Virus record (IMG/VR): IMGVR_UViG_3300045988_168112
DNA: 64,000 nt
Strand: one strand, 5' to 3'
Origin: a virus
The translations under genes and the position numbers were made by a program. Below the pieces are notes generated by a model. That model saw only the letters and a program-made list of their open reading frames with translations, was not told the DNA's origin and ran no database searches. Numbering within the stretch: position 1 is the first letter of the stretch; each line of letters starts with the position of its first letter. This document shows, in pieces, positions 10,659 through 61,395 of this stretch.

Positions 10659-11438
10659 TCATTTGTTATTTAATATCCTTTCTAATGTTTCATCAATAGC
10701 CATATCAGCAACTCTGTCTATCTGAGCAATTTCAAGTGCCCTATCCATCAATCTCTTAGCAATAATACCACCATTGAACCAGCTATTAGGGTCTGACTTG
10801 TCACTAACTCTTCTAAATGTCATGTATTGACCTCTATTCTCATTTTCTGAACTTGAAGCTTCAACTCGTACAAGCCCTTCATATTTAGCTGCTTTATGAA
10901 TGTATTCTGGAACTTTTAATCCAGGAATGTTAATTTCTTTTCTTACACCAGGTATTTGTTGACTTTCAGGTAGTTGAGACCTTTTTAATGGCATTGGTGA
11001 ATTTTTAGCAAGTTGATATACATCCTGAGGCATAATTGAACTGAATATTCCTGCTTCAGCAATCGCTTGCGGTGTCGCATGGCGGAACGGTACGGTCAAA
11101 AATGGTTTACCATCTTTTGTTCGCTTTGCTTTTAAAGAACCTAATAAAAATGGTTTTTCATTCCAAGGTCCATGTCCTTCCTCTATAGATAAAGGTAACG
11201 AAGATTCTCTATTAGATAATCCAAAAATAATTTCAGTAGGATTGACTCGTTCAATAAAAATACCTCTTAAATATTCATTTCGAGAACTTTTTAATTCTTT
11301 ATCTATTAGATTTTTCCATCTATAGGAATATTCTTGTGCTACTCTATCTATAATAGTAGTACCTATCATCAATGTTTGATTTTCATCAAGTGAAAACTCT
11401 TCAATAAGAGAAGAAATATCTATATTAATTGGAACCAT
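10659..11438 (-). CDS. neck/head-tail joining protein (by position)
   Basis: 259-aa ORF in head-to-tail region. Confidence 0.35.
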   Translation of the reverse strand: MVPINIDISSLIEEFSLDENQTLMIGTTIIDRVAQEYSYRWKNLIDKELKSSRNEYLRGIFIERVNPTEIIFGLSNRESSLPLSIEEGHGPWNEKPFLLGSLKAKRTKDGKPFLTVPFRHATPQAIAEAGIFSSIMPQDVYQLAKNSPMPLKRSQLPESQQIPGVRKEINIPGLKVPEYIHKAAKYEGLVRVEASSSENENRGQYMTFRRVSDKSDPNSWFNGGIIAKRLMDRALEIAQIDRVADMAIDETLERILNNK

Positions 11439-12216
11439 ATATTTCTTTCTTTAAAAATTCAACCAATTCTTCGACATCATCTGGAACTTTTGCTCCTTTA
11501 GAATCGTTTTCACTTGCCCATAGAGGCTGTAAGTTTCTGTAATTGAAACAAATACGCTGATTCTCCTCTTTTGTTAAATCGAAATAGGAGCAAGGAATAA
11601 TATGGTCGATATGCCATTCTCCATAATTATCCCATGACATTCCTGGCTCGAATTGTAGTTCAAGATGTTGCTTCAATTCTTCAATCGTACAACCGAGAAG
11701 TTCGAGAGTATGACCTGATTTCCAACCTTTCGTTATCGCTTGATGAATTCTTGACCTTAAATTATGTTTTAAAGCAAAAATTTTATCTATTTTCCTTTTT
11801 TCTTGAATATATTTATTACACTTTACTCGTCTTTTTTGTTGTATCTTTTTTAATACAATTTTACCATTGATAGATTGATAATATTTTTTATTATACTCTA
11901 AAATCTTTACATGTCTCCTTTTTCTAATCAAATATCTTACTTCTTTCCCTCTTTCAGACTGTTCGTAATTTTTATTTCTCTCTCTTATCTCATTTTTATT
12001 TTTTAAATACTTATTCTTATTATATTCCTTTATTTCTTCTTTATGAGATTCTCTATATCTTTTAGATGCTTCTTTACTATTATATAAAGGTTTACAATCT
12101 TTACATTGATATTCATAACCATCAAAAGTTTTTTTATTTTTGTAAAAAGAATCTAAAGGAAGTTCCTTTCGACATTTCGAACAAATCTTGGTTCCTTTTT
12201 CGAAGTTAGCTCTCAT
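11425..12216 (-). CDS. HNH homing endonuclease with N-terminal zinc ribbon
   Basis: HIDHIIPCSYF ... NLQPLWASENDSKGAK (HNH); N-terminal CSKCRKELPLDSFY..CKDCK; K/R/E-rich linker. Confidence 0.75.
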   Translation of the reverse strand: MRANFEKGTKICSKCRKELPLDSFYKNKKTFDGYEYQCKDCKPLYNSKEASKRYRESHKEEIKEYNKNKYLKNKNEIRERNKNYEQSERGKEVRYLIRKRRHVKILEYNKKYYQSINGKIVLKKIQQKRRVKCNKYIQEKRKIDKIFALKHNLRSRIHQAITKGWKSGHTLELLGCTIEELKQHLELQFEPGMSWDNYGEWHIDHIIPCSYFDLTKEENQRICFNYRNLQPLWASENDSKGAKVPDDVEELVEFLKKEIYGSN

Positions 12217-14430: not shown

Positions 14431-15954
14431 TTACAAACCTTCGTCACCAATGTTAACGATACGTACAATCTTAGCAGGCTGATATAATACCGGAGTACCA
14501 TAGTTCAAGATACAGAATCGACGACTCGGAGCAGTAACTGCAAAGTCCATCTTAACAGTATCAGAGAACTGTAAGTATTCGTTAATCTGACTATCATTGT
14601 AATATACCAAGGCAGACTTGGTACCTGCAATGATACGGTTGCGGTCACGTACACAATTTGCAGCAGCACCATCATAACCAGTTGCCATCTGAGAAACAGG
14701 TACTTCAAAAATCGGGAAGTATTCTGTCGTATCATTCAAAACAGCATCTTTCTTTGTACGATAAATAACAAATGAAGAAGCTGCATAAGCACCACCTACA
14801 CCAGCAGTAACACCGAACTCAACTGACTGAGTTGCAGTAACAGCTTGAGCACCAGCAGATGTAATATTCAAAGGTGCAGATTCACCATAACGATTCTTTG
14901 CAGTTACCAAGTAACCATAAGCACCTGCATGACGACCAAAGTTAGTCTTAGTATCAGCATTATTAACCTTAATTGCTGTTCCAGCAGTCGGAGCAACCGG
15001 AGCAACCGGAGCTTTCGGACTTGTAGCGCCTTTACCTACTCTAATAGGCTTACGAACATCAAAGAAACGGTCATTCTTAATGTTAATTTTACCAAACTGG
15101 GTTGTAACATCATTTACAGACTGACCCATAGTAGCACCAGTTACAGAAGCTGCAAGACCTACGATAACTCGCTTGCTTTCGTGGAACTGTTGTACGTAAT
15201 TGTTGAATACAATCGGGTTAGAGATGATTCGGTCAATATAACCATTATAAACATTCACCACAACATTAGATGCATCCTGAATCATCTTATCATTCAAAAC
15301 CTGATTCTGAGCATCAATAACAGCCGGAGAATTGAAATAACCATCAAGCAGTTGTTCAGAAGTCTTACCTTCTGCTGTACCACCGTCCATTTCATTTACA
15401 CCCAACATGTGCTGACGGAATACACCATCAAACTCGATATCAACACAAGAAGAGTCTGCACTTGTCAATGCTGTGTCAATCAATGTCTGTAGCAAAATGG
15501 TCTTATTCTCAACTTCCTGACGATACATGTTATCAATACCGTTGTATTCAGCAATCATTGCAGGATGAGTTACTTGACCAGTAACACCCATGTATTTAGT
15601 CAAGATTGACTTACGTCTGTATTGAGAATCGGTTTCTTCAGGGGTTTCACCTTCAGTATTGAAGATACTGATATCTTCACCATACTTATACAACTGATTG
15701 TACTGATGAACATTCTGTTTAATCTTCTGTTTCGGCATTTCCATATAGTACACCAACTGATTCAATCTATTGGTCAAAATCTTCAAGACTGAATCCAAGG
15801 ATTCAACTTTCAGACCACCACCATTATTAATCATGTTGTTGTATTGCATACCGGTCATAGAACCGGCTTCCATAGCTTTCAAGATATCGTTTGATGACAG
15901 TCCATCGAACAAATCGATATCTGTTCCGTTATTAGTGTATTGATACAAATCCAT
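14431..15954 (-). CDS. major capsid protein
   Basis: 507 aa; follows protease and acidic scaffold-like gene; followed by a hairpin terminator; size and order fit an HK97-fold capsid protein. Confidence 0.75.
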   Translation of the reverse strand: MDLYQYTNNGTDIDLFDGLSSNDILKAMEAGSMTGMQYNNMINNGGGLKVESLDSVLKILTNRLNQLVYYMEMPKQKIKQNVHQYNQLYKYGEDISIFNTEGETPEETDSQYRRKSILTKYMGVTGQVTHPAMIAEYNGIDNMYRQEVENKTILLQTLIDTALTSADSSCVDIEFDGVFRQHMLGVNEMDGGTAEGKTSEQLLDGYFNSPAVIDAQNQVLNDKMIQDASNVVVNVYNGYIDRIISNPIVFNNYVQQFHESKRVIVGLAASVTGATMGQSVNDVTTQFGKINIKNDRFFDVRKPIRVGKGATSPKAPVAPVAPTAGTAIKVNNADTKTNFGRHAGAYGYLVTAKNRYGESAPLNITSAGAQAVTATQSVEFGVTAGVGGAYAASSFVIYRTKKDAVLNDTTEYFPIFEVPVSQMATGYDGAAANCVRDRNRIIAGTKSALVYYNDSQINEYLQFSDTVKMDFAVTAPSRRFCILNYGTPVLYQPAKIVRIVNIGDEGL

Positions 15955-16709: not shown

Positions 16710-17489
16710 TTAAATTCGCTGACTTTTTAAGAAATCTTGAAGAACATTTATAGAAATATGACCCTCTTCATAACTTTTGAATAGATTTTTAAGAATCTCA
16801 TCATTCTTCGCTTTAAGAGGCTCGATTCTAATTCGAAAATCTTTATCAATAGAAAGAATATGTCCATCCTTTTCCATTTCAAGTAAAATGTTAGTTGTTC
16901 GAAAATCTTTATCAGATTCAAATTCGTAATCTACATAATCCTTAGTTTGAACTCCCTTTACAATATCTGCAAAAGTATTTGCATTCACTGGAGTCATAGT
17001 CATTGCAAGATTCGTAATAAGAGCTTTTTTGATTTTCTTAGGATTTGACTTATCTCTTTCAAGAGCTTTACCTTCTATACTAAAACCAGGTTTACGATTG
17101 GTACCTGATTCTTTCATCTCAAGTGCCTTATCATAAAATGCTCTTGCTTCAGGAGATTTTTTCCAAAGTTGACATTTTACATAAAACTTATTATTTTCAA
17201 CTTTTGCACTAATAGGTGCTCCAATCCAAAAACGAGATTTATTAATAGGTGAGCGAGAGGTTAAATGGTCTAAATTTATTAAACCATGTTTCAAAAATCG
17301 GTCAATTATAAAACCATTAGGTTCCATAGATTCACCTTCTGCATCTTCAGATGTATCGGAAGCCAACCCTTCAAATATCATTCTTTCGTATCTCCTATCA
17401 TCACCAATTGGATAATCGAGAGGATTAAAAGAAGATTTCTCAAAGTCAGCTTCTGTAAAAAAGTTAAATCTTGAACCTATTTCAAACAT
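16710..17489 (-). CDS. prohead serine protease (HK97/S78-like)
   Basis: GLINLDH (His) and GFSIEGKAL (Ser) motifs at expected spacing; upstream of scaffold and capsid genes. Confidence 0.6.
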   Translation of the reverse strand: MFEIGSRFNFFTEADFEKSSFNPLDYPIGDDRRYERMIFEGLASDTSEDAEGESMEPNGFIIDRFLKHGLINLDHLTSRSPINKSRFWIGAPISAKVENNKFYVKCQLWKKSPEARAFYDKALEMKESGTNRKPGFSIEGKALERDKSNPKKIKKALITNLAMTMTPVNANTFADIVKGVQTKDYVDYEFESDKDFRTTNILLEMEKDGHILSIDKDFRIRIEPLKAKNDEILKNLFKSYEEGHISINVLQDFLKSQRI

Positions 17490-18310
17490 TTTCGTTTCTG
17501 TTCCATAATCACCGAATTTAGAAATTTATCAATCAAATCATCGATTTCTTTGTATCTTCTCACTCTTTTCCAATCATTTTCAGAAACTTTCTTCTTCGTT
17601 CCCATAATTGCACCGAAAATCGCTGCATTTGTATCAGTATCTTCGCCATAATTGATAACTGAACAAAGGTCTTCAAAAAGTGTAGAATTCTTATTTTCTT
17701 GCGCTAAATAATTATCAATCACGAGATTATATGTGTTTATCACATCACCTCTATTATCATAATCATTCACCTCAAGATTTTCCATCGGCAAATCTCCTAA
17801 CAAATTTTTGAGTATGCAACAAAATTTACTACCGAATTCAAAACAATTCTTATTATTGTGTGTATAGCAACAAAACGCTTCAAATAGATTTTTCGTATAT
17901 TCATCAGATTCATTCAAACAAGCTATTGCAATAGGAAGTGAATAAAACAATGCACCGTTGCCCATTCTATCTGTTCTTGAACATCCTTTGCACTGTATTG
18001 ATTCTACTGTTTGATTTCCAATATCAAACAATCTACTTCCTGCATTGAATTTCTTGTTTTTATACCATAAATCCAAGTTCTTTTCGAATTTATCAATCTT
18101 CTTGATATTTTCTCCAGGTGTACAAAAAGCATCTAATAAACACAATAAAACAGATGTATCGTCAGACCACGTTCCCTCTATCTGTCCATGAATTCCTCCT
18201 GAAGCGAATCCACAACAGAGAAATGTTCCTTCACTTCTAAATTCAAAAGGAACACCAAGTACATCTCCAAGGATATAGGCTCTGATACTATTTCTTATCT
18301 TCTCTTTCAT
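17477..18310 (-). CDS. ADP-ribosylglycohydrolase (DraG/ARH family)
   Basis: N-terminal IRAYILGDVLGVPFEF and C-terminal GEDTDTNAAIFGAIMG family signatures; start taken at MKEKIRN (ATG 18310), track start 18358 adds an odd 16-aa extension. Confidence 0.8.
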   Translation of the reverse strand: MKEKIRNSIRAYILGDVLGVPFEFRSEGTFLCCGFASGGIHGQIEGTWSDDTSVLLCLLDAFCTPGENIKKIDKFEKNLDLWYKNKKFNAGSRLFDIGNQTVESIQCKGCSRTDRMGNGALFYSLPIAIACLNESDEYTKNLFEAFCCYTHNNKNCFEFGSKFCCILKNLLGDLPMENLEVNDYDNRGDVINTYNLVIDNYLAQENKNSTLFEDLCSVINYGEDTDTNAAIFGAIMGTKKKVSENDWKRVRRYKEIDDLIDKFLNSVIMEQKRKCLK

Positions 18311-18449
18311 TGTTCTCGAATTTCTTTGCATTCTTAATTGCATTGTCAACCATTTCATCAGTTGCTTTTTTCCTCTCTTCTTCAGTAGGAGTATGAATAA
18401 TACTCATTGTACTGCAGTCATTCCATCTTGATACTTTCTTTGTTTCCAT
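18288..18449 (-). CDS. small ORF (53 aa) overlapping the ARH start
   Basis: ATG 18449, 21 nt after promoter -7 box; METKKVSRWNDCST...NNEREDKK; below the ORF-track length cutoff; ends 23 nt inside the ARH gene in another frame. Confidence 0.35.
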   Translation of the reverse strand: METKKVSRWNDCSTMSIIHTPTEEERKKATDEMVDNAIKNAKKFENNEREDKK

Positions 18450-18470
18450 TAGCTTTTTCTTTTTAGTATC

Positions 18471-18501
18471 TAAAGATACACCTTTTATTAATGTGGTCCA
18501 A
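18471..18501 (-). promoter_or_regulatory. promoter TTG-N20-TATCTTTAGA in front of small ORF/ARH
   Basis: Minus strand TTGgaccacattaataaaaggtgTATCTTTAGATACTAAAAAG, between the ART stop (18518) and ATG 18449. Confidence 0.55.
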
Positions 18502-18517
18502 CAATTCTAATAAAAAG

Positions 18518-21124
18518 TTACACCATTTCGACAACAATTGAATTAAGTCCTTTAGCAAGAACTTTGAATTTACTGAATCTCTGTGTCAAGTATTCATATT
18601 CATCAACTGTATTATTGATATTCGCAACTTTATCTCCTTTCTTAGCCAATAGTGTTATTTGGAAGTCACTTCCAAACAAAGATAGTTGTTTTAATGAAAA
18701 CGAACTAAAACTCTTATCTTCTATAACAGAACCAACTTCAGCGTTCAATAATTCATTTAGGCTATTCATATCTCTTGCTTCTAATCTTCTATACAGAACT
18801 AAATTTTCTTTGCAAGGATTTTTATCTATTGCTTCAGCAATTAATTGAGCCATTAAAGCAATTCCTGTTCCACCACCTTTACCGTAATTATAATCTCGAA
18901 TAGCTTCATAATCAGTACCCATATATCTTTTTAAAGCTTTATATTGAGTCTTAGTAACTTTTAACTTTTTACCTTGTTTTTCATAATAATCTATCATTTC
19001 ACCTTCATCTTCGAGAGTATGACCTGTAAAATGTTTATACTTCACACCATTCCATTCTGAATATAAAACACCATTAGCTACTGGAAGATAACCTGAATCA
19101 ATAAGTACTTTGTTTACTTCAGCTCTTTGTGTTGATTCTAAATAAGGATATTTACTAAGGATTTCTTCAAAATCTTCATCTTCAATATAATTTTTAAACC
19201 TTTTCTCAATATTTTCATCGATAGTAACTGAATCAAGTACTTTCCCAAATCTTTCTTTTTGTTCTTTATCTAAAGTATCGTTTTGAGAATTCCTTTTCTT
19301 CAAGAATTCTTTGAATTCTTTCTCAGCTTCAAACTTCACATCGTTCTTTTCTTCTTTAGTATCTAATTTTTTTAGATTATCTTTCAAAGCAAAAACACCT
19401 TGATGTTTCGGCCAAGACATAGATTTATTGTTACTCAAATCTTCCAATAAATACTCTCCTTTATCTTCGTCTCGAGAAAATCTATAATCTACACCATTTT
19501 CAGTAAATTCAACTGCCTTACCTTCATCTAACTTCTGTAAAATCTTACCATACAGTATCATACCAGCTTGTGACTTTATAGAATCCATTTTAACTACTGG
19601 TTTATCAATTTTATCTTTCTTCTCTTCAACTTTCGTTGATTCTGGTTTCTTAGCTTCTACTGCAAGTTCTGATTTAGATTCTTCTTTTTTAAGAGTCTTT
19701 TCAAATTCCTCCTTCACCCGTTTCTTGAATTCATTGAGAGGTTCATTTGGCTTAGATTCCATATAGAAGGAACCTTTCTTAGCTTTATATTTATCCTCTC
19801 CCTTCATATTAAGAACAATTGTCTGACCATCAACCTTAACATAGGTTTGAGTGATTTTCTTGAAACCATTCATTTCATTGAGTTTCTTATCGATACTATC
19901 AGAAATATCTTGCTTCAATTTATCCAACTTAGAATCAAGTGTCTTCTCATCTATAGGTTTAGTTTCTTTCGCCTCTTTATTCTTAGCTATCTTTTCTTTG
20001 ATTTTATTAATTACAGACAAATCTAAATCAAGTTCACCTTTTTCTTGAGCATCAAGAATACGTTGAAGAGCTGATGTAATACCAAGCTCATTCGCAGATT
20101 TATCATCTGACACTTTACCTTTACGATTCTCAATTTCCTTTTGAGCTGCCTGCTTGACTTCAAGAGAAGCATCTTTATCATTGATTGCAGCTTGTAACTG
20201 TTCATCACTTGCTTTAGATGCGTGTTGAGAGTAATCAACTTTTGCAGTTTTAGCTTCAGATTGTTGTTCATCTTTTTTTGAAGATTTTCCTTTTCCTTTA
20301 GGTCTCCAACCGTTAGCAGTTTTCACATATACCTTACCTCCCCACGTCTTTTCTGTACCAATAGGGGATGATTTCTTAGCTTTCTCTATAATTTCGTCCA
20401 TAAGTTGTTGTTCAATATTTAGATTTGTTGTATCTTTAGGAACAGAAAGAGCGTTGGAGCTTATTAAGGGATTGAGCCTTGCCGAGTCCATATCATTAGA
20501 ACTATCAGGTCCATCGAGTATAGTCAAGCTCTTTTTAATTTTATCTTCAATCTTAATATCTTTATTGTAAGATGTTAATACCCAAAGTTTTTCTCTAAAA
20601 TTATCATCTTCATCATAAACTACAGACTTTGTAAGTGTCACTTTCCATTCTCCTTTATAGATATTTACTTTCATCCCGTTTTCATAGAATTTCCCTATTT
20701 GCCCATTTTTCAATATATCTGAAATCCTATCTGCTATATCTTCATAAGATTTAAAATCATTTTGTTCTATAAAATGACGTTTTCTTATATGACGAAGACC
20801 TTTTCTTTCATCTCCCCAAATTATATCTATCTTACCAAGTCCTTCTCTTTCTATAGCTCCAATCACTTGACCGTTTCTTTCTTTCAAAAGAAAATCAATA
20901 GCTTCTTTAGGTTTACCTGCATATTTAAAATAATTCCGACCAAAAACTTTTAATTCGTCTTTAGCATATCGCTCTTTACTTACCTTTTGTCCTTTTACTA
21001 CTCGCCAACTTCCATCGGCTTGTTTCTGATATTTTACATTCTTCCATATCCTAATTTCACCAACTACGGCTTTTGCTTTCATTAATTCATTAAAATCTTC
21101 TTGATTCTTTATTGTTTGCATCAT
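18518..21124 (-). CDS. polyvalent protein: N-terminal PBECR-like nuclease region, K/E-rich linker, C-terminal ADP-ribosyltransferase
   Basis: C-terminus YKALKRYMGTDYEAIRDY, LVLYRR (Arg), SFSSFS (STS-like), DEYEYL (ExE) = R-S-E ART triad; N-terminus IDIIWGDERKGLRHIRKRHF; ATG at 21124 (track start is TTG). Confidence 0.7.
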   Translation of the reverse strand: MMQTIKNQEDFNELMKAKAVVGEIRIWKNVKYQKQADGSWRVVKGQKVSKERYAKDELKVFGRNYFKYAGKPKEAIDFLLKERNGQVIGAIEREGLGKIDIIWGDERKGLRHIRKRHFIEQNDFKSYEDIADRISDILKNGQIGKFYENGMKVNIYKGEWKVTLTKSVVYDEDDNFREKLWVLTSYNKDIKIEDKIKKSLTILDGPDSSNDMDSARLNPLISSNALSVPKDTTNLNIEQQLMDEIIEKAKKSSPIGTEKTWGGKVYVKTANGWRPKGKGKSSKKDEQQSEAKTAKVDYSQHASKASDEQLQAAINDKDASLEVKQAAQKEIENRKGKVSDDKSANELGITSALQRILDAQEKGELDLDLSVINKIKEKIAKNKEAKETKPIDEKTLDSKLDKLKQDISDSIDKKLNEMNGFKKITQTYVKVDGQTIVLNMKGEDKYKAKKGSFYMESKPNEPLNEFKKRVKEEFEKTLKKEESKSELAVEAKKPESTKVEEKKDKIDKPVVKMDSIKSQAGMILYGKILQKLDEGKAVEFTENGVDYRFSRDEDKGEYLLEDLSNNKSMSWPKHQGVFALKDNLKKLDTKEEKNDVKFEAEKEFKEFLKKRNSQNDTLDKEQKERFGKVLDSVTIDENIEKRFKNYIEDEDFEEILSKYPYLESTQRAEVNKVLIDSGYLPVANGVLYSEWNGVKYKHFTGHTLEDEGEMIDYYEKQGKKLKVTKTQYKALKRYMGTDYEAIRDYNYGKGGGTGIALMAQLIAEAIDKNPCKENLVLYRRLEARDMNSLNELLNAEVGSVIEDKSFSSFSLKQLSLFGSDFQITLLAKKGDKVANINNTVDEYEYLTQRFSKFKVLAKGLNSIVVEMV

Positions 21125-21140
21125 CAATTGTTTTTATTAA

Positions 21141-21202
21141 ATAGTCTTGAATTATTGTCCTCAGCAAAGTCTACCCCGCAGTCCAATAATATTCAAGACT
21201 AT
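21141..21202 (-). other. long bulged hairpin between Nudix and ART genes
   Basis: ATAGTCTTGAATTATTG (21141-21157) pairs with CAATAATATTCAAGACTAT (21184-21202), 2-nt bulge, 26-nt relatively GC-rich loop. Confidence 0.5.
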
Positions 21203-21214
21203 TTCAACGAATTC

Positions 21215-23074
21215 TTAATGTAACTGCAAACGATACTTCGTCTGTTTGAGTGTTGCCATAAAATCTTCAACCCAAGACTTTTCACCTGCATAATTTTGCT
21301 TGTCTTCGAGTTTAGAATAGAATTCTTTTGTCCTATCAATAATCAGATTGATAAGTCCTATCGGGTCATCAACTTCAATTTCTTCACCGTTGATTTCACC
21401 TTCTTTGAATCGTCCGAATTCTGACTGTCCTGCTTCCATTATCTTATCTTCATAATCTGAAAGTTCCTCTATCAAATCATCGAGATATTGATGTTTAGCA
21501 TTATCTTCTTCACTCCAATGGATATTCTTTGATTTCGTCTTCACGCCTTCAATGAAATTAGCAAAATCAGCAAACACTCTGTACATCTCATCTTTTGCTT
21601 TTAGAATCTCAGAACCATCATCTAAAGAAACGTTACTGTTTATCTCTTTACGAATATCATCTATACCCCAAGATTTCTCTATTTCTTCATCAGAAACAAG
21701 AATCTTGTTTATATCGAGTTTTCCTTCGTTTTTCATCTCATTCAGTAAAGATTTGAACATATCAGCTTGGTCGAGGTCATTGAAGTCAATTAACATTCTA
21801 AAACCTGTTGGTTCTTCAGTTTCAATCTCAATAGATTTTTCTATACCATCACCTTCAGGTTCTTTTGTTTCTTTATCTAAATCTTCTTTACATAAAGCAT
21901 TAACACTATTACAATCTATAGTCTTTTCAACATTCTCTTTTTCTTTCCAATCCTCAGGAAGTTCATTCTCAAGACCCAGCTCTTTAGCACGTTTCTTAAT
22001 CCATGCTTTCACCTTTTCTTTCGGCATATCAGAAGCGCCGGACAACTTAATAGCATCTTTCAAATCCTGACTATTCCTTATAGGATATTTCCCGTTCGGC
22101 ATTGCCTCGCCTTTCTTTGCAAGGTCTTTTCTTTCTGTATGTGAAAAATAGGTTTTATTATTTGCCTTTTTGATATCTTCTGGACATGATTTACAAACAT
22201 CGCCGAAGACTTTTTCTGAAATATCACCATTCAAAAATGACTTCATAATCTTCAAGACTTTATTTTCAGATACTTCAAGTCCTAAAATTCGTTTGATATT
22301 ATCTTTCATATCAAAAATGAAATCATAATCATCTAACTCTGTAGATGGATTAATCCAAGCAGAACCAATTTCTTCTTCACTATCAAGCAACAATGAAGCT
22401 GGAGCTTCACTATCAATATGACCTATAAAATAATGAATTTCAAAATCTTTACCTGTCGCGATTCCAACTGGATAAAGCAAATCTTCAGGAACATCTAATC
22501 CAGTCTCTTCAAATAATTCTCTATGAGCTGCTTCACGCCATTCTTCTCCTGCATCTACATGACCTCCAGGAATACACCATTCAGTAGTACTTTCACCCAT
22601 ATCACCAACTCTCTGTAGGATAAGAAGTTTGTCCCCTCTAAATAAAAGCACATCTGCATATTTCACTTTACCAATCTTCGCTTTGATAATGTCATTGTAA
22701 ATAGACTTTGAAATTACACCAGATTTACACAATCCTTTAGCTTCAAAGAGGTCTTTCATATCTACAAGTGCTTCTGCAATTTCAGTATCATCTTCTAATA
22801 ATTTTATAGACTTTTCTATAGAAGTCTTTTCTTTTTGGATACTTGCAACATGTTTCGTATGTTCCTTCAAAAAAGAATCGTATCTTTTCAAAGCATCTTC
22901 TTTCTCTTCTGCATCTAAAGTGGAGATACTTTTAATAATACTATTCTGTTGTGCAAACTCATCTGCAAGATTATCTATCTCTTTATTGATATCTTGAGAT
23001 TTTTGAAGAAGTTTTCTGTACTGATTGATTTTTTCTTCTTTTGAACGAAAACCAAATAATTTCTTTATATTCAT
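21215..23074 (-). CDS. Nudix hydrolase domain protein with coiled-coil N-terminus and long C-terminal extension
   Basis: Perfect Nudix box GGHVDAGEEWREAAHRELFEETGL (nt 22499-22567); 619 aa total. Confidence 0.75.
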   Translation of the reverse strand: MNIKKLFGFRSKEEKINQYRKLLQKSQDINKEIDNLADEFAQQNSIIKSISTLDAEEKEDALKRYDSFLKEHTKHVASIQKEKTSIEKSIKLLEDDTEIAEALVDMKDLFEAKGLCKSGVISKSIYNDIIKAKIGKVKYADVLLFRGDKLLILQRVGDMGESTTEWCIPGGHVDAGEEWREAAHRELFEETGLDVPEDLLYPVGIATGKDFEIHYFIGHIDSEAPASLLLDSEEEIGSAWINPSTELDDYDFIFDMKDNIKRILGLEVSENKVLKIMKSFLNGDISEKVFGDVCKSCPEDIKKANNKTYFSHTERKDLAKKGEAMPNGKYPIRNSQDLKDAIKLSGASDMPKEKVKAWIKKRAKELGLENELPEDWKEKENVEKTIDCNSVNALCKEDLDKETKEPEGDGIEKSIEIETEEPTGFRMLIDFNDLDQADMFKSLLNEMKNEGKLDINKILVSDEEIEKSWGIDDIRKEINSNVSLDDGSEILKAKDEMYRVFADFANFIEGVKTKSKNIHWSEEDNAKHQYLDDLIEELSDYEDKIMEAGQSEFGRFKEGEINGEEIEVDDPIGLINLIIDRTKEFYSKLEDKQNYAGEKSWVEDFMATLKQTKYRLQLH

Positions 23075-23111: not shown

Positions 23112-23546
23112 TTATGAAATATCACTCTTGATACGAATATCTTCAACGTAATAAAAATCACGTTCACCTATATAGACATTATAAAAGAATCTGTTCACAG
23201 TTTCAAGTTTCTCAATACGGTCAACTATATAACTATTCTTTCTACCCTCAAGTATCATTCCTGGTTTTAATTTAGAGGTTTTTGTAAGTGAACAAGTCTT
23301 TTTGTTTGAATCTATAACATAAAGTAACTGTTCTCCTGATATTCTATCTAAAACTACTTCTTCATCAGCATGACAATATACGTTATAGACAGATTCATTA
23401 AAACGCGCAGCTCTTTTATAAAGAGCTTCTAATTTTGCAAATCCATTTTTGTTCACAATCAAATCACCAATTTTCAAATCTTTGATAAACTTAGGTCCTT
23501 CGAATGTCTTCACTTCGACGAAACTTGAATTAAAACCACCTTTCAT
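23112..23546 (-). CDS. free-standing Hint-like domain protein
   Basis: SFVEVKTFEGPKFIKDLKIGDLIV (intein block A-like) and RFFYNVYIGERDFYYVEDIRI (C-terminal block-like); no extein. Confidence 0.4.
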   Translation of the reverse strand: MKGGFNSSFVEVKTFEGPKFIKDLKIGDLIVNKNGFAKLEALYKRAARFNESVYNVYCHADEEVVLDRISGEQLLYVIDSNKKTCSLTKTSKLKPGMILEGRKNSYIVDRIEKLETVNRFFYNVYIGERDFYYVEDIRIKSDIS

Positions 23547-23548
23547 AT

Positions 23549-24148
23549 TTATTCATGTATTATTGTTTTTAATACTCCACCAAAATCTTGGATAACATAT
23601 TCTATAGGTGCTATCAGATTATAAAGAGTTCCTTTGTATGTAGTTTCTTTAATATCTTTAACAATAAGTTTTCTTACACCAAAATGACTTTTAGATGTAT
23701 CTTCAAAACTTTTTACATACTCTTCAATCGATAATTTTCGTTCCTCACTATCTGACCTTAAAGATGAACCTGATATTCTATTCAAACACTCACCTTCAGT
23801 CATCTCACTTAAAAGTTTTTCATCTAAAATAGGTAAACAACATTTTTGAGAATATTTACCAATAAATAATTTTTGACCTTCACAAATTGAAATCTCTCCA
23901 GCTTCACTTTCAAAGATTAAAGTAAATATCTTACCATTATAATCTCCTATATTGATTCTTGCTGGCATATATCTAAAACTAAAGGTAGGAATATGAAGCA
24001 TCTTAACAAAATCAATTCCATTCTTATTAAGGTCACTGATTTTGATGAATTCATCTTCAAACCTCTCTTCTTTAAGTCTACTATCTTCGTAAGTTTCAAC
24101 CTTCTTTCTCAAGACTTGTACTAACACATCTCCTTTGTATCCTATCAT
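23549..24148 (-). CDS. second Hint-like domain protein
   Basis: GTLYNLIAPIEYVIQDFGGVLKTIIHE C-terminus resembles the intein/Hint terminal block (..vYnL.v...h.f.a.G.l.HN). Confidence 0.35.
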   Translation of the reverse strand: MIGYKGDVLVQVLRKKVETYEDSRLKEERFEDEFIKISDLNKNGIDFVKMLHIPTFSFRYMPARINIGDYNGKIFTLIFESEAGEISICEGQKLFIGKYSQKCCLPILDEKLLSEMTEGECLNRISGSSLRSDSEERKLSIEEYVKSFEDTSKSHFGVRKLIVKDIKETTYKGTLYNLIAPIEYVIQDFGGVLKTIIHE

Positions 24149-25095
24149 ACTATAAACTCTTTATTGCCGACTGTTATTTTAACTTTACTTCTTCTCTCAA
24201 CTTTTCTATCAAAATGTTTGACTGGTTCAAATGATTGTGTTTCGTCATTCCAAACATATGATTTCGGGATATAACGCATATTACACCTACAAAATGGGTG
24301 AATTGGTCCAAGAGTTGGTTTCCAATCTTTTGACTTTAAACCTATATTGTCACCATTCGCTATTAGGTCAATCAACTTGAATATTCTTGGCTTCGTACCT
24401 ACACCTCCAGTTGTATAGAGTTGTTGACAATATTTACACGCACCAGGGTACACTTGTTTATATACCAATGCTTCTGCACCATGTTCATTCATTATCTGTT
24501 GTGCTACACCTATTTGATAGACGTATTGCATTTCAGTCTCGACTATTCTGCCCCAATCTCTATTCCAATCGTCCAACGAATGTCCTATACTACTGATAAT
24601 AGATTGGATTGATTTCTTTTTCAAAGTTCCTTCAATTATTTCCTTCTTAATGGTGGTTAATTCAAGTTGTCTTTGAATTTCTGCTATTAACTTAACCTCC
24701 TCTTCAGATATAGAATTTGAAAGAATATCCCGCATTCTTTTCCCCATTGTCTTTATATAGGAGTAAGTTCGGGTCGCTGCAGCATCGTACATTGCTTTTT
24801 CTGAAGCTGTCAATGCCTTATACTGCTTCTTGTCTATGTAAGACAAAAGGTCAGTATAATCCAATGTCCTTAATTGACTTGGAGTCAATTGTCCTGATAA
24901 TCTACCAAAAAGGTATGATTGATAATATGGAGGCAATTTCTTCAATTCATCCTTCCATTTATAACCATACCTTTTTAATAACTCCTTGTCTTCAGAAGAT
25001 AATTTACTCTCACCAAGAACATCTGCAACAATTCTTGCAAGTCGATAATCTATAATATCGAATAACCTCTGTATTTCATCAGGAGTGAAAATCAT
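24145..25095 (-). CDS. MuF / SPP1 gp7-like minor head (morphogenesis) protein
   Basis: PGACKYCQQLY ... IHPFCRCNMRYIP signature; two genes after portal (a small 67-aa ORF lies between). Confidence 0.7.
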   Translation of the reverse strand: MIFTPDEIQRLFDIIDYRLARIVADVLGESKLSSEDKELLKRYGYKWKDELKKLPPYYQSYLFGRLSGQLTPSQLRTLDYTDLLSYIDKKQYKALTASEKAMYDAAATRTYSYIKTMGKRMRDILSNSISEEEVKLIAEIQRQLELTTIKKEIIEGTLKKKSIQSIISSIGHSLDDWNRDWGRIVETEMQYVYQIGVAQQIMNEHGAEALVYKQVYPGACKYCQQLYTTGGVGTKPRIFKLIDLIANGDNIGLKSKDWKPTLGPIHPFCRCNMRYIPKSYVWNDETQSFEPVKHFDRKVERRSKVKITVGNKEFIV

Positions 25096-25295
25096 TGTTT
25101 TGCAATTTTAGTCATTTCCTTGGTCAAATCTATCATCATATTATTGACCTGAGTTGAAAACATAACTTGTGCCAATCCTTCATATCCACATTGGACTTTC
25201 GGATAACGAATAGGGTCCTTTGTATGATATATAACATTCGACTTTTTAGCCATCTGTTTGATATCAACTCCATCAACTTTTTTAATCGGCGGCAT
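25092..25295 (-). CDS. hypothetical small protein
   Basis: 67-aa ORF coupled between portal and MuF genes. Confidence 0.55.
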   Translation of the reverse strand: MPPIKKVDGVDIKQMAKKSNVIYHTKDPIRYPKVQCGYEGLAQVMFSTQVNNMMIDLTKEMTKIAKQ

Positions 25296-27010
25296 TACTT
25301 GTATAAATTAGTTTTATAATAATTTATCGCTTCTGCAAGTATAGGATTATTGTCAAATGATTTATACTTATCAAACGGGTTTTCACTGAATGATTCTTCA
25401 TCATTTGGAACTCCTGCTTCTTCTGATTCTCCAGGAACAGACGCTCCATACATCTGCTGCTGTTGTTCAGCTTGCTTTGCAGTCTGATAAACTTGATTGA
25501 TAATGATATCGTTTTCTGGGTCAAGTGGTCTTCCTGAATACTTCTGGAATATATCTTGCATTGCAACCATACCTTTTTCAAGTTTCTCAGCATCAAGTTT
25601 TACTTGAGCTTCTTCATCTTCAACCTCAATACCAGTAAATGAAAATTCGAAATCTTCATCAAGCTCACTTACGATATATTTCGTAATCACATTCTCCAGG
25701 AATATAAGAATAGGTTTCAAACCTTTCTCTCTACTATGTTGCAATCTGGCTTTTTGACCATCTTGTCCAAAGATTTGAGCTTGGTCTTTGAATTGGAATC
25801 CTAATTCCGTAGGGTCTATTCTATAGACAGAACAACTCATTATAACCAAGAATTTCAACCAATCATTGAATTCCATATCACGGTTTCCTTTCTGGAGGTC
25901 AATCCATTCCAAATCGATACCATTGATAACCGGTACCCTATGAGAATTCTCAACTCCCCTCATCGTCTGCATCCATGCCTGACGAAATTCATTCAATGTT
26001 GATGGTGAAATATTCGCATTCTTTACATTAATAAAACCTTTTGGTTGAGAACCTTGTTTGAAAAATAATCCATTATAACTCATTCCCCATAATATCCATG
26101 TAATAATCTCTACAAGAGTTTCAAGTTCACTTGTACCATATCCATTCTTACGAATATTAGAAGTTTTGTTTCTAATACCAAATCCAAGCTCCCATGGATA
26201 ATATAAAATTGGTTCTTTTGTCATAGGATTACGAATAATCATATCATCCCATACCATACAATATCTTGGTAAATAACCTTTGAACCTGTATCCTTCAAAA
26301 GCTTCTCTTTGTCTTGGGTCAACAGTATCAAGAAATCGAATAAGTGATGCATCAATAGCTCTGAATTTTTTCAATTCCCAATCACGACTCCTGACAACTT
26401 CAAATGCCAGTTGGTCCAATGTAAGACTATCGAATGTTATCTTACGAACGAATTCTTGAAAACTATCCAGATTATCCCACTTCTCATTCCATCCTCCGTT
26501 CTCAAGGAATTTCACAATATTCTCTATCTTTCTTTTATCTTCGTTAGAAAGTTCATCTTCTTTCTCTTCTTTGAAGAGACTTTTCTTTCTTCGGATAGTA
26601 TATCCTTCTTTTTGTTCATCTTCAGAAAAATGCAGAAAATTTTGAACTTGCTCAATACGTGTATTAACTATTGCACGAATGATATAAATATCTCCCATTC
26701 TCCGAAGAGTAGAAAATGATAGAACTCCCTTTGAATCTTTGAATCCTTTACCATTCCCCGCTAAATCATTAGGGTCAAAGAAAACAGATTGTATATGAGG
26801 ATTCGTCTTATTGATTTCGCCTAAATACAAATTAGCTTTCAACAACTCTTCCGTATCATTAGAACTCAAAGCTGATTGAAGTTTACTTTGGAATGCCATA
26901 GGGGCTGCTTTTTGTATCGAATCAAGTTCTTCTAAAGAAAGTCCAGCCAGACTCGATAAAAAGTCTGGCTTTGACTTAATTTGAGAATTTCGTTTATTTC
27001 TTTTTCCCAT
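25295..27010 (-). CDS. portal protein
   Basis: 571 aa; acidic C-terminus; upstream of MuF, protease, scaffold and capsid genes. Confidence 0.75.
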   Translation of the reverse strand: MGKRNKRNSQIKSKPDFLSSLAGLSLEELDSIQKAAPMAFQSKLQSALSSNDTEELLKANLYLGEINKTNPHIQSVFFDPNDLAGNGKGFKDSKGVLSFSTLRRMGDIYIIRAIVNTRIEQVQNFLHFSEDEQKEGYTIRRKKSLFKEEKEDELSNEDKRKIENIVKFLENGGWNEKWDNLDSFQEFVRKITFDSLTLDQLAFEVVRSRDWELKKFRAIDASLIRFLDTVDPRQREAFEGYRFKGYLPRYCMVWDDMIIRNPMTKEPILYYPWELGFGIRNKTSNIRKNGYGTSELETLVEIITWILWGMSYNGLFFKQGSQPKGFINVKNANISPSTLNEFRQAWMQTMRGVENSHRVPVINGIDLEWIDLQKGNRDMEFNDWLKFLVIMSCSVYRIDPTELGFQFKDQAQIFGQDGQKARLQHSREKGLKPILIFLENVITKYIVSELDEDFEFSFTGIEVEDEEAQVKLDAEKLEKGMVAMQDIFQKYSGRPLDPENDIIINQVYQTAKQAEQQQQMYGASVPGESEEAGVPNDEESFSENPFDKYKSFDNNPILAEAINYYKTNLYK

Positions 27011-27022
27011 CGTCAGATAATT

Positions 27023-28525
27023 TTAAGCTCCAGCTAATTGCGTTAAAGTAACAGTCGCTGTCTTATTTCCTTCTGTTGTAGTAACCACTGCTGTTCCAGT
27101 TCTCTGTGCTCCAGTATTTGCTGCTGCCACTACTGAATATTCCGAAGACCCTTTTGTAAATCCTTCACCCTGGACTGTCGTAGTATAAGTTACCGCAGAA
27201 GGAATGCCGCTATTACTTCCATTAACCTTCTTCTGTTTAGTAGCTGTTACTCCGAATATTTTAGTCTCTCCTGCTGCCGCAAAAGAAAGTGTGGTTGGGT
27301 CTACAGTACATGTATATTCATAGGTAACTGTCGCTGCAAGCTGTGTTAACGTAACATTTACCGTCTTGTTGCTTTCAGTCTGTGTAATAGTAATAGAACC
27401 GTTATTATCTGTTTCTGCCTTATTTTCAGCCGCCACTATACTATAATTCTCTCCATTAGATGTTTCAGATGAAGTCTGGCTGAATCCAGTTCCGGTAATC
27501 TGTGCAGTCGTATCTACCTTCTCGACACCACCGGAAGGCTTGCCGTTGACTTTTTTCTGTCTTGTTGAAACAATTTGTAAACTCTTCGTTTCTCCAAGCG
27601 CTACAAACTGTATGGTCTGTGAATTGGCAGACAACGCATAATCATATGTCACTATAGCTGCATTCTGTGTAAGTGTCACTTCCGCAGTCTTTCCACCATC
27701 CTGCGAAATAGTCGCTTTTCCTGTTCTCTGTGAGCTTCCGGTATTCTCAGAAGCTTTCAAATTGTAGTTATTTCCGCTTTCCTCATAATCGAACCCTACA
27801 CCTGCCAGTTCTATATCAGTAGGATATGTTTCTGGCTGCTGTTTTACTCCATTCAGAACTTTTGTTCTTGTAGAGGTAACAGTGACAAGCTTTTCACCTC
27901 CTGCACCGTCGAACGTTACCGCTGTCGGGTCTACTGTAAGCGCATATTCGTAGGTTACAGTAGATGCAGCCTGGTTGCATGTAATCTGCAATGTCTTTCC
28001 GCTTTCATTCTGTTTAACCGTCACTACCGCTTTTCTTGTCGTGTTGTTGGGGTTCTCGTCAACCGTTACTTGTCCTCCACCGTCAACCTTGAATCCTGCC
28101 CCAGATATTGAGAATTCCACTGGTACACCTTCCGGATGTCCTACTGGTTTCCCGTTCTTAAAAGTCTGCTTAGAAGACGTCACCACGCACATATCATCAC
28201 CTCCCTTTGCAGGGAAATTAAGTGTAGGTTCTTTAGTCTCCAATACGTATTCCACAACTTCCTGCACGTCCGACAATACCGCGCCTTCTTCTCCGAATCC
28301 TTCCGGATATGAGATAAGCTTAACAAGCGCCTTAAACGCCCATTCCTTGAACTGTCCTATATTATAAGTATGACCAGCTTCAATTACAATACCGATAGAC
28401 TTATAATATTCAATTGCTCCAACAACGTTTTCAGTTACAAAAACATTCAACTGACTGTCTAAACCATCAGTTATGACAGTCAGTTGTTTGGAATTATCTT
28501 CTGTTGTAAATAATAATCGTAACAT
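27023..28525 (-). CDS. BACON/Ig-like repeat protein (virion surface/decoration candidate)
   Basis: Four tandem units of about 100 aa ending ..N.G..R.G.A..TQ..G.K.A.VTLTQ; e.g. TVTYEYALTVDPTAVTFDGAGGEK, IVTYDYALSANSQTIQFVALGETK, TVTYEYTCTVDPTTLSFAAAGETK. Confidence 0.6.
   Translation of the reverse strand: MLRLLFTTEDNSKQLTVITDGLDSQLNVFVTENVVGAIEYYKSIGIVIEAGHTYNIGQFKEWAFKALVKLISYPEGFGEEGAVLSDVQEVVEYVLETKEPTLNFPAKGGDDMCVVTSSKQTFKNGKPVGHPEGVPVEFSISGAGFKVDGGGQVTVDENPNNTTRKAVVTVKQNESGKTLQITCNQAASTVTYEYALTVDPTAVTFDGAGGEKLVTVTSTRTKVLNGVKQQPETYPTDIELAGVGFDYEESGNNYNLKASENTGSSQRTGKATISQDGGKTAEVTLTQNAAIVTYDYALSANSQTIQFVALGETKSLQIVSTRQKKVNGKPSGGVEKVDTTAQITGTGFSQTSSETSNGENYSIVAAENKAETDNNGSITITQTESNKTVNVTLTQLAATVTYEYTCTVDPTTLSFAAAGETKIFGVTATKQKKVNGSNSGIPSAVTYTTTVQGEGFTKGSSEYSVVAAANTGAQRTGTAVVTTTEGNKTATVTLTQLAGA
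27026..28190 (-). repeat. tandem protein-level BACON-like repeats (about 4 units)
   Basis: Repeat units visible in the translation; nucleotide copies are diverged. Confidence 0.6.
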
Positions 28526-30489: not shown

Positions 30490-31437
30490 TTAGTTTTTGT
30501 TACCAAATTTCTTATCTCTGTTTTTGGTCACATGGTCGTACATCTTTGAAATGATTTCTTTTACAAGTGCAGATTCATCTACTAACTCATCTTTCTTAAA
30601 GAATAATCTTGTTTTTGAACGAGTCTTTTCTACTTTACCATCTTGAGTTTCAAATATATGTTTACCGTTTTCTTCTCCTTTATAGGTAAGTCTTGAACTT
30701 CTCGGATTACTATTTGCATAAACAATATCACCTGGTTTCAATTTAGAAACAGTGAGACCTTTTGAACTGTCAAGAATCTTCTTAAGTATCTGTTTTCTAT
30801 ATTGAAGACTGATATCAGCATCTGACAACTCATCATTCATCACTTCTGGATTTTCAAGATACTCTTTAATCAATTCTTTTCGAATCTCTTTAGTTCTCTT
30901 GGATTCACCGTTTTCATCTTCTTTCTTAGATTCTTTAGTTTCGGATTCTTTGCCAGTACCTGTTGTTCCTTTCTTTTTAAGTCTCCAACCTTTCTCGGTC
31001 TTGACATACATCTTACCACCATACATCTTTTCTGTTCCAAGCGGAAGAGCTTTTGCTTTCTCAATTGCAACATCATCTGCACAATTGATACCTGCAATCC
31101 CTTTTAAAATATTCAAAGGAGTCTCTTTGTAGCAAAAACACATTCTATCATCTATAGACTTGAAGATACCATCAGGAATTTCAACCGGTTCTCTCTGCGC
31201 TTCTCTGTAGAACATCAAACTCTTCATTAAATCATTGCTACGTACAAATACAGGCTTCAAAGACATATAATCAGCAGTACAACAAACTATCTCAAATTCA
31301 TCAATTTCTTTATTCTTTGATTTTTCGATAACATCCTTTGAAAATGCATCTACTTGCGCCTTAGTAAACACTTCAAGATTGTTTTTCTCAACAAATCTAT
31401 TGAATTCATCTTGCGTAAATTCTTTAGGATTATTCAT
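30490..31437 (-). CDS. hypothetical protein sharing a 33-aa module with the ART polyvalent protein
   Basis: IEKAKALPLGTEKMYGGKMYVKTEKGWRLKKKG versus IEKAKKSSPIGTEKTWGGKVYVKTANGWRPKGKG in ORF 18518-21124. Confidence 0.6.
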   Translation of the reverse strand: MNNPKEFTQDEFNRFVEKNNLEVFTKAQVDAFSKDVIEKSKNKEIDEFEIVCCTADYMSLKPVFVRSNDLMKSLMFYREAQREPVEIPDGIFKSIDDRMCFCYKETPLNILKGIAGINCADDVAIEKAKALPLGTEKMYGGKMYVKTEKGWRLKKKGTTGTGKESETKESKKEDENGESKRTKEIRKELIKEYLENPEVMNDELSDADISLQYRKQILKKILDSSKGLTVSKLKPGDIVYANSNPRSSRLTYKGEENGKHIFETQDGKVEKTRSKTRLFFKKDELVDESALVKEIISKMYDHVTKNRDKKFGNKN

Positions 31438-55041: not shown

Positions 55042-55272
55042 TTACAATATTTTATAAATTCCTTTATCAATTCTTTCTAATTTACCTTCTTTCATTAGAT
55101 GTTGAAACCAATGGTCAACTCCTGCTCTAATAGAGCCAGGTTGAAACTTATTCATATTATTGATTTTTCTAACTAATTCATTTCTCTTGATAATGCCAGA
55201 TTTTTCATTCTTCATTAACTTATCAACAGCATCTACTACCGTATAGATGTTATCTAATCTATCTTCTCTCAT
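55042..55272 (-). CDS. winged-helix-like small protein
   Basis: Start MREDRLDN at ATG 55272, ATGA overlap with the helicase stop. Confidence 0.5.
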   Translation of the reverse strand: MREDRLDNIYTVVDAVDKLMKNEKSGIIKRNELVRKINNMNKFQPGSIRAGVDHWFQHLMKEGKLERIDKGIYKIL

Positions 55273-61391: not shown

Positions 61392-61395
61392 AATC

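Follow-up and report, generated by a model that had tools for sequence, protein, structure and literature searches.

What do three consecutive genes for ADP-ribose chemistry do between the portal and capsid genes of a phage? The question is raised by IMGVR_UViG_3300045988_168112, of which a stretch of 64,000 nt was analysed here (the window; related contigs reach ~105 kb). Positions 17477-23074 of the minus strand hold, in order of transcription, genes for a Nudix protein, an 869-amino-acid (aa) protein with a C-terminal ADP-ribosyltransferase (ART) domain, and an ADP-ribosylglycohydrolase (ARH). A first-pass annotation had read them as one three-gene unit, new to a head module, in which NAD would flow through ADP-ribosylated protein and free ADP-ribose (ADPr) to AMP. 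The coordinates and every motif quoted there recur in the translations, and the location stands as described, between portal, MuF and Hint-like genes on one side and protease, scaffold and capsid genes on the other, a position typical of packaged effectors (PMC9503650). The unit itself divides differently. The real cassette consists of the ART gene, a 51-58-aa open reading frame (ORF) and the ARH gene, and is read here, with moderate confidence, as an effector-immunity module; the Nudix gene is a separate component of the head module.

The features concerned are the following.

23074..21215, minus strand: Nudix-DUF5856 protein, 619 aa (Pfam and PHROG matches)
21127..18518, minus strand: 869-aa putative multidomain effector with PBECR1, a ~35-aa motif and a C-terminal ART
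20558..20857, minus strand: PBECR1 nuclease-like domain, aa 91-190 of the 869-aa protein (Pfam PF18809)
20303..20344, minus strand: core of the ~35-aa motif, PIGTEKTWGGKVYVKTANGWRPKGKG, in the 869-aa protein (regular-expression and profile scans)
18521..19045, minus strand: ART catalytic domain, aa 695-869, R-S-ExE type (Pfam, PDB sequence matches, AlphaFold2)
18449..18288, minus strand: small ORF, 53 aa, METKKVSRWNDCSTMSIIHTPTEEERKK... (conserved position, substitution rates)
18358..17477, minus strand: ARH, 293 aa as listed (PF03747 and PHROG)

The ART cassette and the conserved Nudix gene

The window proteins were searched by tblastn against 93 loci, 81 of which cover the site, and a tree was built from protease and capsid sequences. 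The window is a member of an extensive family of viral contigs from the human gut, with capsid proteins 69-99% identical to one another; more distant capsid relatives are found in Bacteroides phages DAC19-23 and in SPO1-like phages, and the capsid is Herelleviridae-like. ART and ARH are both present in 28/81 loci and both absent from 53/81, and no locus (0/81) carries a single one. The Nudix-DUF5856 gene occurs in 81/81 (56-100% identity over the Nudix domain), including 53/53 loci devoid of ART and ARH. In DAC22, a distantly related Bacteroides phage, a stand-alone Nudix gene lies at the equivalent position. Database relatives number at least 1345 for the Nudix protein and 455 for the ART protein. 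The Nudix-DUF5856 gene is a separate, conserved core gene of the head module, outside the variable cassette, and this independence dissolves the three-gene unit and removes the basis for an obligate three-enzyme flow. Incidental cooperation of the three enzymes in phages that have them all may still occur and is compatible with such independence.

The adjacency and order of ART, small ORF and ARH are preserved in at least six diverged sublineages, including the outgroup L084 (L numbers denote individual loci). Relatives retrieved through the ARH keep the full series of Nudix, ART protein, a 52-57-aa ORF, ARH and protease at an ART identity of 33-36%. The cassette is ancestral in the family. 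The 53 loci that lack it form one tight clade on the protease-capsid tree, and therefore reflect about one loss or replacement event, not repeated co-gain and co-loss. Within this clade the slot is either empty (~260 nt) or occupied by an unrelated 344-aa gene, with the two states intermixed on the tree; because its contents vary, the position upstream of the protease constitutes a variable cargo slot, which suggests that cargo is gained and lost often at this site. The 344-aa gene (L043:7314-8348, present in about half of the clade) lies between Nudix and protease and has no Pfam or PHROG match. Close phages with the cassette, the alternative gene or nothing in one slot represent a natural experiment on what an injected ART would contribute.

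Measured on its domain, the ART is the fastest-evolving protein of the region in distant comparisons, with a nonsynonymous divergence (dN) of 0.40-0.57 against 0.11-0.13 for the capsid protein; two close comparisons give 0.05-0.09 against 0.00-0.01. Its ratio of nonsynonymous to synonymous divergence (dN/dS) is 0.19-0.47 over all comparisons. Alleles are exchanged among near-identical phages, as in L001, where the synonymous divergence (dS) of the ART gene is 0.47 and that of neighbouring genes 0.07-0.18. Two structural variants of the gene and its surroundings were also observed. In L002, L005 and L018 (IMGVR_UViG_3300045988_147099 and relatives), otherwise 94-100% identical to the window, the ART-containing ORF has just 273 aa, which suggests that a frameshift or stop has split the gene or that the assembly is faulty, and L007 (7420-9953) has ~2.5 kb of extra sequence between the ART ORF and ARH.

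Domains of the 869-aa protein, the small ORF, the ARH and the Nudix protein

The domain assignments of the first-pass annotation, for which it had proposed profile and fold searches, hold throughout: the ART was recovered by profile hidden Markov models and by structure, and the ARH and Nudix domains by profiles. Four features had escaped it, namely PBECR1, DUF5856, the 53-aa ORF and the modular and polyvalent build of the ART protein.

The 869-aa protein combines two effector-type domains (PBECR1 and ART) in a single chain encoded between the MuF and protease genes. The listed start codon is TTG, followed by ATG ATG, and the real start is probably at 21124 or 21121. The chain is composed of PBECR1, the ~35-aa motif, a series of Lys/Glu-rich helical and small β modules, and the C-terminal ART. 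The ART domain is not reported by a Pfam scan of the full-length protein; the isolated C-terminal 159 aa match ADPrib_exo_Tox at 6.4e-10 (39.1 bits, cutoff 23.4) and, by sequence, Vip2 and C2-I in the PDB. An AlphaFold2 model of aa 695-869, computed from a 15-row alignment, reaches a predicted local distance difference test score (pLDDT) of 87.3, and Foldseek aligns it with Vip2, C3 exoenzymes (C3bot), CDTa and C2-I at probability 1.0 and template modelling (TM) scores of 0.66-0.79. The domain also matches, in sequence and fold, 8za7_B, the toxin of the Listeria monocytogenes 'ART-ARH type toxin effector-immunity protein pair'. Its structural neighbours among viral proteins include the entry named 'Mono-ADP-ribosyltransferase C3' from the same species, ARTs fused to MuF or to portal, and members of the T4 Alt family; public records label the protein family 'VIP2' or 'Mono-ADP-ribosyltransferase C3'.

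The catalytic motifs comprise the arginine in LVLYRR, the serine in SFSSFS and the ExE in DEYEYL, with YRR, SFS and EYE aligned on YRW, STS and EKE of Vip2. Orthologues down to 36% identity show no variation at R86/R87, S115 and E149/E151 (domain numbering; the two glutamates are E843/E845 of the full-length protein), and R, S and ExE are all retained in L186-L188, whose ART domains are 33-36% identical. By profile, fold and motifs, the 869-aa protein is an ART of the R-S-E clade, assigned to the Vip2-like R-S-ExE type and not to the H-Y-D (Tox-ART-HYD2) type. The E-x-E pair corresponds to the arginine-specific ADP-ribosylating turn-turn (ARTT) motif, from which arginine is the predicted acceptor.

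The N-terminal PBECR1 domain (PF18809, 1.6e-10, 41.9 bits, cutoff 27.6) belongs to a family known from polyvalent proteins and from fusions with MuF or portal (PMC5512222). Both the His motif and the Thr/Ser motif that are conserved in it are intact (GLRHIRKRH ... LTSYNK). Among orthologues the N-terminal ~230 aa are variable or missing and aa ~236-869 are conserved; the N-terminal module is PBECR1, MuF_C in L013 (PF18819, 1.2e-19), a separate PBECR1 gene in L102/L103, or nothing. An AlphaFold2 model of the full-length protein, which covers the middle region (aa ~290-690), is poor (mean pLDDT 43.8), and its fold search against the PDB returned noise (best E=0.29). A tblastn search with the ART domain found no match in 50,697 GenBank phage records, and the species-representative bacterial genomes scanned hold no ART-domain relative, so no prophage copy is established there.

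The ~35-aa motif, with consensus PxGTEKxWGGKxYVKTxxGWRPKxK, links the ART protein to other cargo. It lies at aa ~20-60 in ART proteins lacking PBECR1 and MuF_C, and behind the N-terminal nuclease module where one is present; some Nudix orthologues carry it as an insertion (e.g., L010:4738-7161 and L078:2721-4967). In the window, a degenerate copy is found at 21002-21046 (-) and a further copy (nt 30982-31023, -) in a 315-aa ORF (30490-31437) upstream of the head operon, which has no Pfam or PHROG match. The motif itself corresponds to no Pfam model. A search of 1.84 billion representative proteins retrieved 187 carriers, and a Pfam scan of 53 of the longer ones detected NUDIX (5), LPD1 (3), ADPrib_exo_Tox (3), MuF_C (2), PBECR1 (2), InPase (1) and Kinase-PolyVal (1), an enrichment in domains of polyvalent proteins. 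PBECR1, MuF_C and the motif link the 869-aa protein to polyvalent virion-associated effectors, and the shared motif puts the ART and Nudix proteins alike in that class.

The ARH (PF03747, 4e-24, 86.2 bits, cutoff 26.2) overlaps the protease start by 13 nt. Its true start is probably M17 at nt 18310 (277 aa), as its orthologues are ~270 aa long. Its best PDB relatives are Tri1 (6dre, 1.4e-11) and Lmo0067 (8za7_A, 1.8e-11), both ART-immunity hydrolases, in agreement with the toxin-immunity logic first proposed for the ART/ARH pair. The best NCBIfam model is likewise the Tri1 ADP-ribosylarginine hydrolase (3.1e-14), at 52.5 bits far below its equivalog cutoff of 490, and the DraG model gives 1.1e-7 and 31.4 bits against a cutoff of 337; the protein is thus outside Tri1 and DraG at the equivalog level. 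In a comparison of 25 sequences with identities as low as 23%, the residues of catalysis and metal binding D32, E39, D66, D112, N134, H167, D240, T241, D242 and T243 (numbered on the 293-aa form) are invariant, and S65, D67, T68 and T166 are at least 90% conserved; this conservation argues for an enzyme, not a decoy. Aligned with Tri1, the phage ARH matches from residue 70 of Tri1 onwards, so that the phage protein lacks the Tri1 N-terminal segment, which we take to be the extension that plugs Tre1. Detectable relatives of this ARH are present in 31/50,697 phage records, and ARH domains have been described as rare in phages (PMC9503650).

Between ART and ARH, and overlapping the probable ARH start by 23 nt, lies the 53-aa ORF. 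All ART+ARH loci examined have an ORF of 51-58 aa at this position, an independent gene caller annotated it in L102, L103 and L186-L188, and its dN/dS of 0.10-0.41 indicates purifying selection. It is found with or without PBECR1, and therefore goes with ART/ARH; a role as PBECR1 immunity protein was considered and rejected, as the ORF accompanies all ART proteins devoid of PBECR1. By analogy to Bsi, described below, it is a candidate non-enzymatic immunity or inhibitor protein. More speculatively, its position just upstream of ARH could let it stand in for the Tri1 plug segment.

The Nudix protein is composed of a coiled-coil-like N-terminal region, the Nudix domain (aa 140-244, nt 22343-22657; Pfam NUDIX 4.2e-16, 59.6 bits, cutoff 21.1), a variable middle region that carries differing insertions in orthologues, and a C-terminal DUF5856 (aa 519-616, nt 21227-21520; 1.4e-8), a domain without solved relatives. 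The Nudix box, read from the sequence, is canonical (G171-x5-E-x7-REUxEExGU, following GX5EX7REUXEEXGU). The protein is a member of the polyvalent class and probably virion-associated.

Weighing the effector-immunity reading

The closest characterised system is Bxa, a MuF-ART encoded among the head-morphogenesis genes of the Bacteroides stercoris prophage PhiBxa, which modifies arginine and which, as shown experimentally, is neutralised by the ARH1-type hydrolase BAH and by the binder Bsi (PMC11699363). The likeness of the present locus to Bxa-Bsi-BAH, drawn from the published description and not from sequence comparison, extends to the Bacteroidales phage background, a small non-enzymatic ORF followed by an ARH-family hydrolase without N-terminal extension, an ExE motif that fits the arginine-linked modification, and modular N-terminal parts that swap between toxins. 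The two systems also differ. The ART is not fused to MuF, which is a separate gene three genes upstream, but to PBECR1 (one orthologue has MuF_C instead, and others have no such module); the small ORF, at 53 aa, is shorter than Bsi, which has at least 92 residues; and PhiBxa is a prophage, whereas the present contigs reach ~105 kb, encode a Herelleviridae-like capsid and are probably those of a virulent phage.

Domain identities, ART fold, catalytic residues, synteny, the evidence that the small ORF is coding, and the Nudix gene's independence are the observed basis from which we think it reasonably probable that the cassette is an effector-immunity module in the cargo slot, its packaged and injected PBECR1-ART protein being neutralised in the producing cell by a small binder and the ARH. 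The 869-aa protein would be a polyvalent-type effector composed of an RNase-like PBECR1 domain, the 35-aa module, linkers and an arginine-directed mono-ADP-ribosyltransferase of the Vip2/C3/Alt kind. It would be produced late, alongside the head proteins, and probably packaged in the head and injected. The 53-aa protein would bind the ART and block its active site as Bsi does, and the ARH would strip arginine-linked ADPr as BAH and Tri1 do, the two together shielding the producing cell, here meaning the machinery that the phage itself runs in its late phase. Immunity of this kind would be needed by a lytic phage because a promiscuous ART would modify the machinery that builds virions and consume NAD+, which the phage ligase also uses. 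The host is probably Parabacteroides or another member of the Bacteroidales.

The arrangement has precedents. MuF-fused ART toxins followed by immunity genes are known (PMC5576092), and the small ORF and ARH, conserved directly downstream of ART, are by arrangement candidates for the immunity genes that follow MuF polymorphic toxins (Jamet 2017). Tre1-Tri1 of the Serratia type VI secretion system (T6SS; 6dre/6drh) and Lmo0066-Lmo0067 of Listeria (8za7) likewise pair an ART toxin with an adjacent ARH; delivery here would be by the phage capsid in place of a secretion system, and, unlike Tri1, the phage ARH lacks the N-terminal segment and has a separate 53-aa ORF just upstream. T4 Alt is an R-S-E ART made late and sets the precedent for packaging and injection. 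It differs in genomic context, shows no sequence-level similarity detectable in the phage-record search with the ART domain, and has, to our knowledge, no adjacent ARH or inhibitor.

Packaging in virions has been predicted systematically for the ARTs and Nudix proteins of head modules (Iyer et al. 2017 PMC5512222; 2022 PMC9503650). The polyvalent proteins of those surveys resemble the present locus in joining PBECR1 and ART in multidomain products among virion genes, with Nudix in the head module and MuF, Hint and MuF_C nearby, and their LPD1, InPase and Kinase-PolyVal domains co-occur with the shared 35-aa motif. The functions here are, in contrast, split over adjacent genes, not joined in one giant polypeptide. 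The ARTs of 'genuine' polyvalent proteins were found to be of the H-Y-D (HYD2) type, with no Alt/VIP2-type ARTs (PMC5512222), whereas the present locus has an R-S-E ART in a polyvalent-type architecture. An ART-ARG pair in phages has been reported only as a toxin-antitoxin pair of Aeromonas phages, outside the head module (PMC9503650).

Several points weigh against the effector-immunity reading. Packaging and injection, catalytic activity, the target, the specificity for arginine, and the roles given to ARH and small ORF are all elements that we infer. The ART protein has no N-terminal MuF domain, the supposed capsid-targeting domain of MuF toxins, and MuF is a separate gene. No immunity partner of PBECR1 was identified, the small ORF tracking ART instead, and that ORF has no Pfam, PHROG or PADLOC match and no detectable homology. 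As the ART-minus loci form one clade, the co-occurrence of ART and ARH is down-weighted as independent evidence. MuF toxins have been reported in temperate phages only (PMC5576092), and this phage is probably virulent, with no integrase or lysogeny gene among the ORFs scanned within the 64 kb of genomes that reach ~105 kb in relatives. Scans that might have informed on transcriptional coupling, for sigma-70-type promoters (53 sites, 55.7 expected from shuffled sequence) and intrinsic terminators (4, against 4.0 in shuffled sequence), were both at background, with models ill-suited to Bacteroidales promoters.

The 869-aa protein could alternatively be a toxin or fitness factor of the Bxa kind, released at lysis or capsid-borne and not injected, that hits competitors or epithelial cells, the small ORF and ARH protecting the producer only. 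Bxa shares the head-region position and immunity arrangement, and acts on epithelial non-muscle myosin II while also being antibacterial (PMC11699363); the nearest folds, Vip2, C3, CDTa and C2-I, are eukaryote-targeting toxins. However, the ribonucleotide reductase (RNR), NAD-dependent ligase, helicases and Herelleviridae-like capsid, with no lysogeny gene in the scanned ORFs, suggest a virulent phage, to which a fitter host would bring no advantage, and the fusion to an RNase-like PBECR1 and the polyvalent-type motif point to intracellular bacterial targets. We regard this alternative as unlikely.

That Nudix, ART and ARH form one writer-eraser-scavenger pathway from NAD+ to AMP and ribose-5-phosphate, or that the Nudix enzyme destroys ADPr-derived immune signals, is distinctly unlikely. 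The three genes are adjacent and co-oriented, the 35-aa motif is common to the ART protein and some Nudix orthologues, the Nudix domain matches the Thermus thermophilus ADP-ribose pyrophosphatase 1v8i (5e-5), and ADPr is a substrate of NudE-type Nudix proteins from phages (PMC9503650). Against these stand the retention of the Nudix gene in the ART/ARH-less clade, its stand-alone state in DAC22 and the stronger PDB sequence matches, which are to NUDX1-type enzymes. All NCBIfam Nudix equivalogs (RppH, generic Nudix, NadM-Nudix and NudE) fall far under their cutoffs (best, RppH, 30.3 bits against 116), so that no substrate class is assignable. ADP-ribose pyrophosphatases carry, in the Bessman-group signature, a proline ~16 residues past the Nudix box; the present sequence has no proline 15-16 residues past its box.

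A reversible cycle like that of DraT and DraG, in which ART and ARH would tune a host or phage protein during morphogenesis (e.g., a head-assembly or packaging component), is very unlikely. The genes do lie inside the morphogenesis operon, head-module ARTs may act on or protect the packaging apparatus (PMC9503650), and the ARH matches the DraG model (1.1e-7). Yet heads are assembled in the absence of ART and ARH by one large clade of this phage family, the ART is fused to a toxin-type nuclease domain, and its fast evolution and exchange by recombination are typical of conflict effectors, not of housekeeping regulators. It is equally improbable that the ARH counters host ART immunity as an orphan antitoxin, as AdfN does against DarT1, unrelated to the phage's own ART: phages carry orphan antitoxin-like ADPr erasers (PMC11825919) and ARH homologues circulate on host mobile elements, but no family locus (0/81) has an ARH without ART directly upstream, the gene is translationally coupled to the small ORF, and expression from a late operon would be ill-timed unless the protein were packaged.

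The novelty first claimed was rated too high: an ART, an ARH and a small immunity gene in a head region are already known from Bxa/BAH/Bsi (PMC11699363), and packaged ART and Nudix proteins had been predicted (PMC5512222, PMC9503650). What is distinct here is an ART fused to PBECR1 and not to MuF, an R-S-E ART in a polyvalent-type architecture, and a large, probably virulent carrier family; neither the enzymology nor the kind of system is new. If the effector-immunity mechanism is true, the logic of Bxa/BAH/Bsi extends past temperate MuF fusions to abundant, large, probably virulent phages of the human gut, and the toxin need not be fused to MuF. The 53-aa protein is a lead as a candidate ART inhibitor, and the ARHs of mobile elements as a possible defence that erases the modification made by a phage effector.

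Host-side ARH genes and the flanking head genes

Bacteroidales or Parabacteroides contigs (L096-L100 and L104-L106) encode ARHs that share 45-50% identity with that of the phage and have no ART gene next to them. They lie on small integrative elements laid out as integrase, HTH_17, Phage_CRI and T5orf172, followed by a single or tandem ARH. One source attributes such an ARH protein to Parabacteroides sp., and among species-representative genomes the only close ARH relative is in Parabacteroides faecalis (49% identity; next best at most 32%). A neighbour-joining tree without support values groups the element ARHs with the phage ARHs. These observations suggest a host range and gene exchange between phages and host elements. 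The element ARHs possibly serve as orphan immunity against phage ART or T6SS ART toxins. Defence by erasing the modification made by a phage effector has been predicted (PMC9503650), and no demonstration was found in the literature. A wider three-way arms race, in which element ARHs erase the modification by an injected phage ART and the GTEKxWGGKxYVKTxxGWRPK module is a general virion-loading or docking signal for cargo, seems to us doubtful.

Every gene in this part of the window is on the minus strand, transcribed in the order portal, 67-aa ORF, MuF-like, 199-aa ORF, 144-aa Hint-like ORF, Nudix, 869-aa protein, 53-aa ORF, ARH, protease, probable scaffold and major capsid. The flanking features are as follows.

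27010..25295, minus strand: portal (Pfam, 1.9e-16)
24145-25095, minus strand: MuF-like minor head protein, 316 aa (phrog_115, 1.9e-6)
23549-24148, minus strand: 199-aa ORF of the upstream flank, standing alone after MuF
23112-23546, minus strand: 144-aa Hint-like ORF (gp41-1 intein, E=0.04; homologue of the PT-HINT insertion in the L187 MuF gene)
17489..16710, minus strand: prohead maturation protease (phrog_1028, 1e-35)
15954..14431, minus strand: major capsid protein (phrog_752, 4e-51)

PADLOC models returned nothing meaningful for any of the proteins, and megablast of the 13-kb region gave a sole match of 182 nt. For the Hint gene of the first-pass annotation, the direct match of the 144-aa ORF is weak (gp41-1 intein, E=0.04), and the ORF is homologous to a segment inserted in the MuF gene of L187 that Pfam labels PT-HINT. 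Inserted segments interrupt the MuF gene in both L186 (330-2270) and L187 (804-2192), with the homologue of the 144-aa ORF as a separate downstream gene in L186, and L188 (1-1663) has an intein with a LAGLIDADG domain within its portal gene. The window has an uninterrupted MuF gene, with the 199-aa and 144-aa ORFs (23112-24148) free-standing behind it. Intein/Hint elements appear mobile among the head genes of this phage family.

Elsewhere in the window, the phage encodes an NAD-dependent DNA ligase with adenylation, OB and BRCT domains (59457-61418, -), another consumer of NAD+, near an RNR-like gene (52362-54686), a UvrD helicase (55269-56723) and an SNF2 helicase (57693-59372). Directly upstream of the portal gene, a 500-aa ORF (27023-28525, -) without PHROG match contains 3-4 internal repeats of ~100 aa each (…TVTYEYALTVDPT…KKVNG…) that look Ig-like or BACON-like. 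Downstream of the capsid gene in the structural block, an ORF at 11425-12216 (-) is endonuclease VII/HNH-like (phrog_1035, 1.3e-20) and possibly encodes a homing endonuclease.

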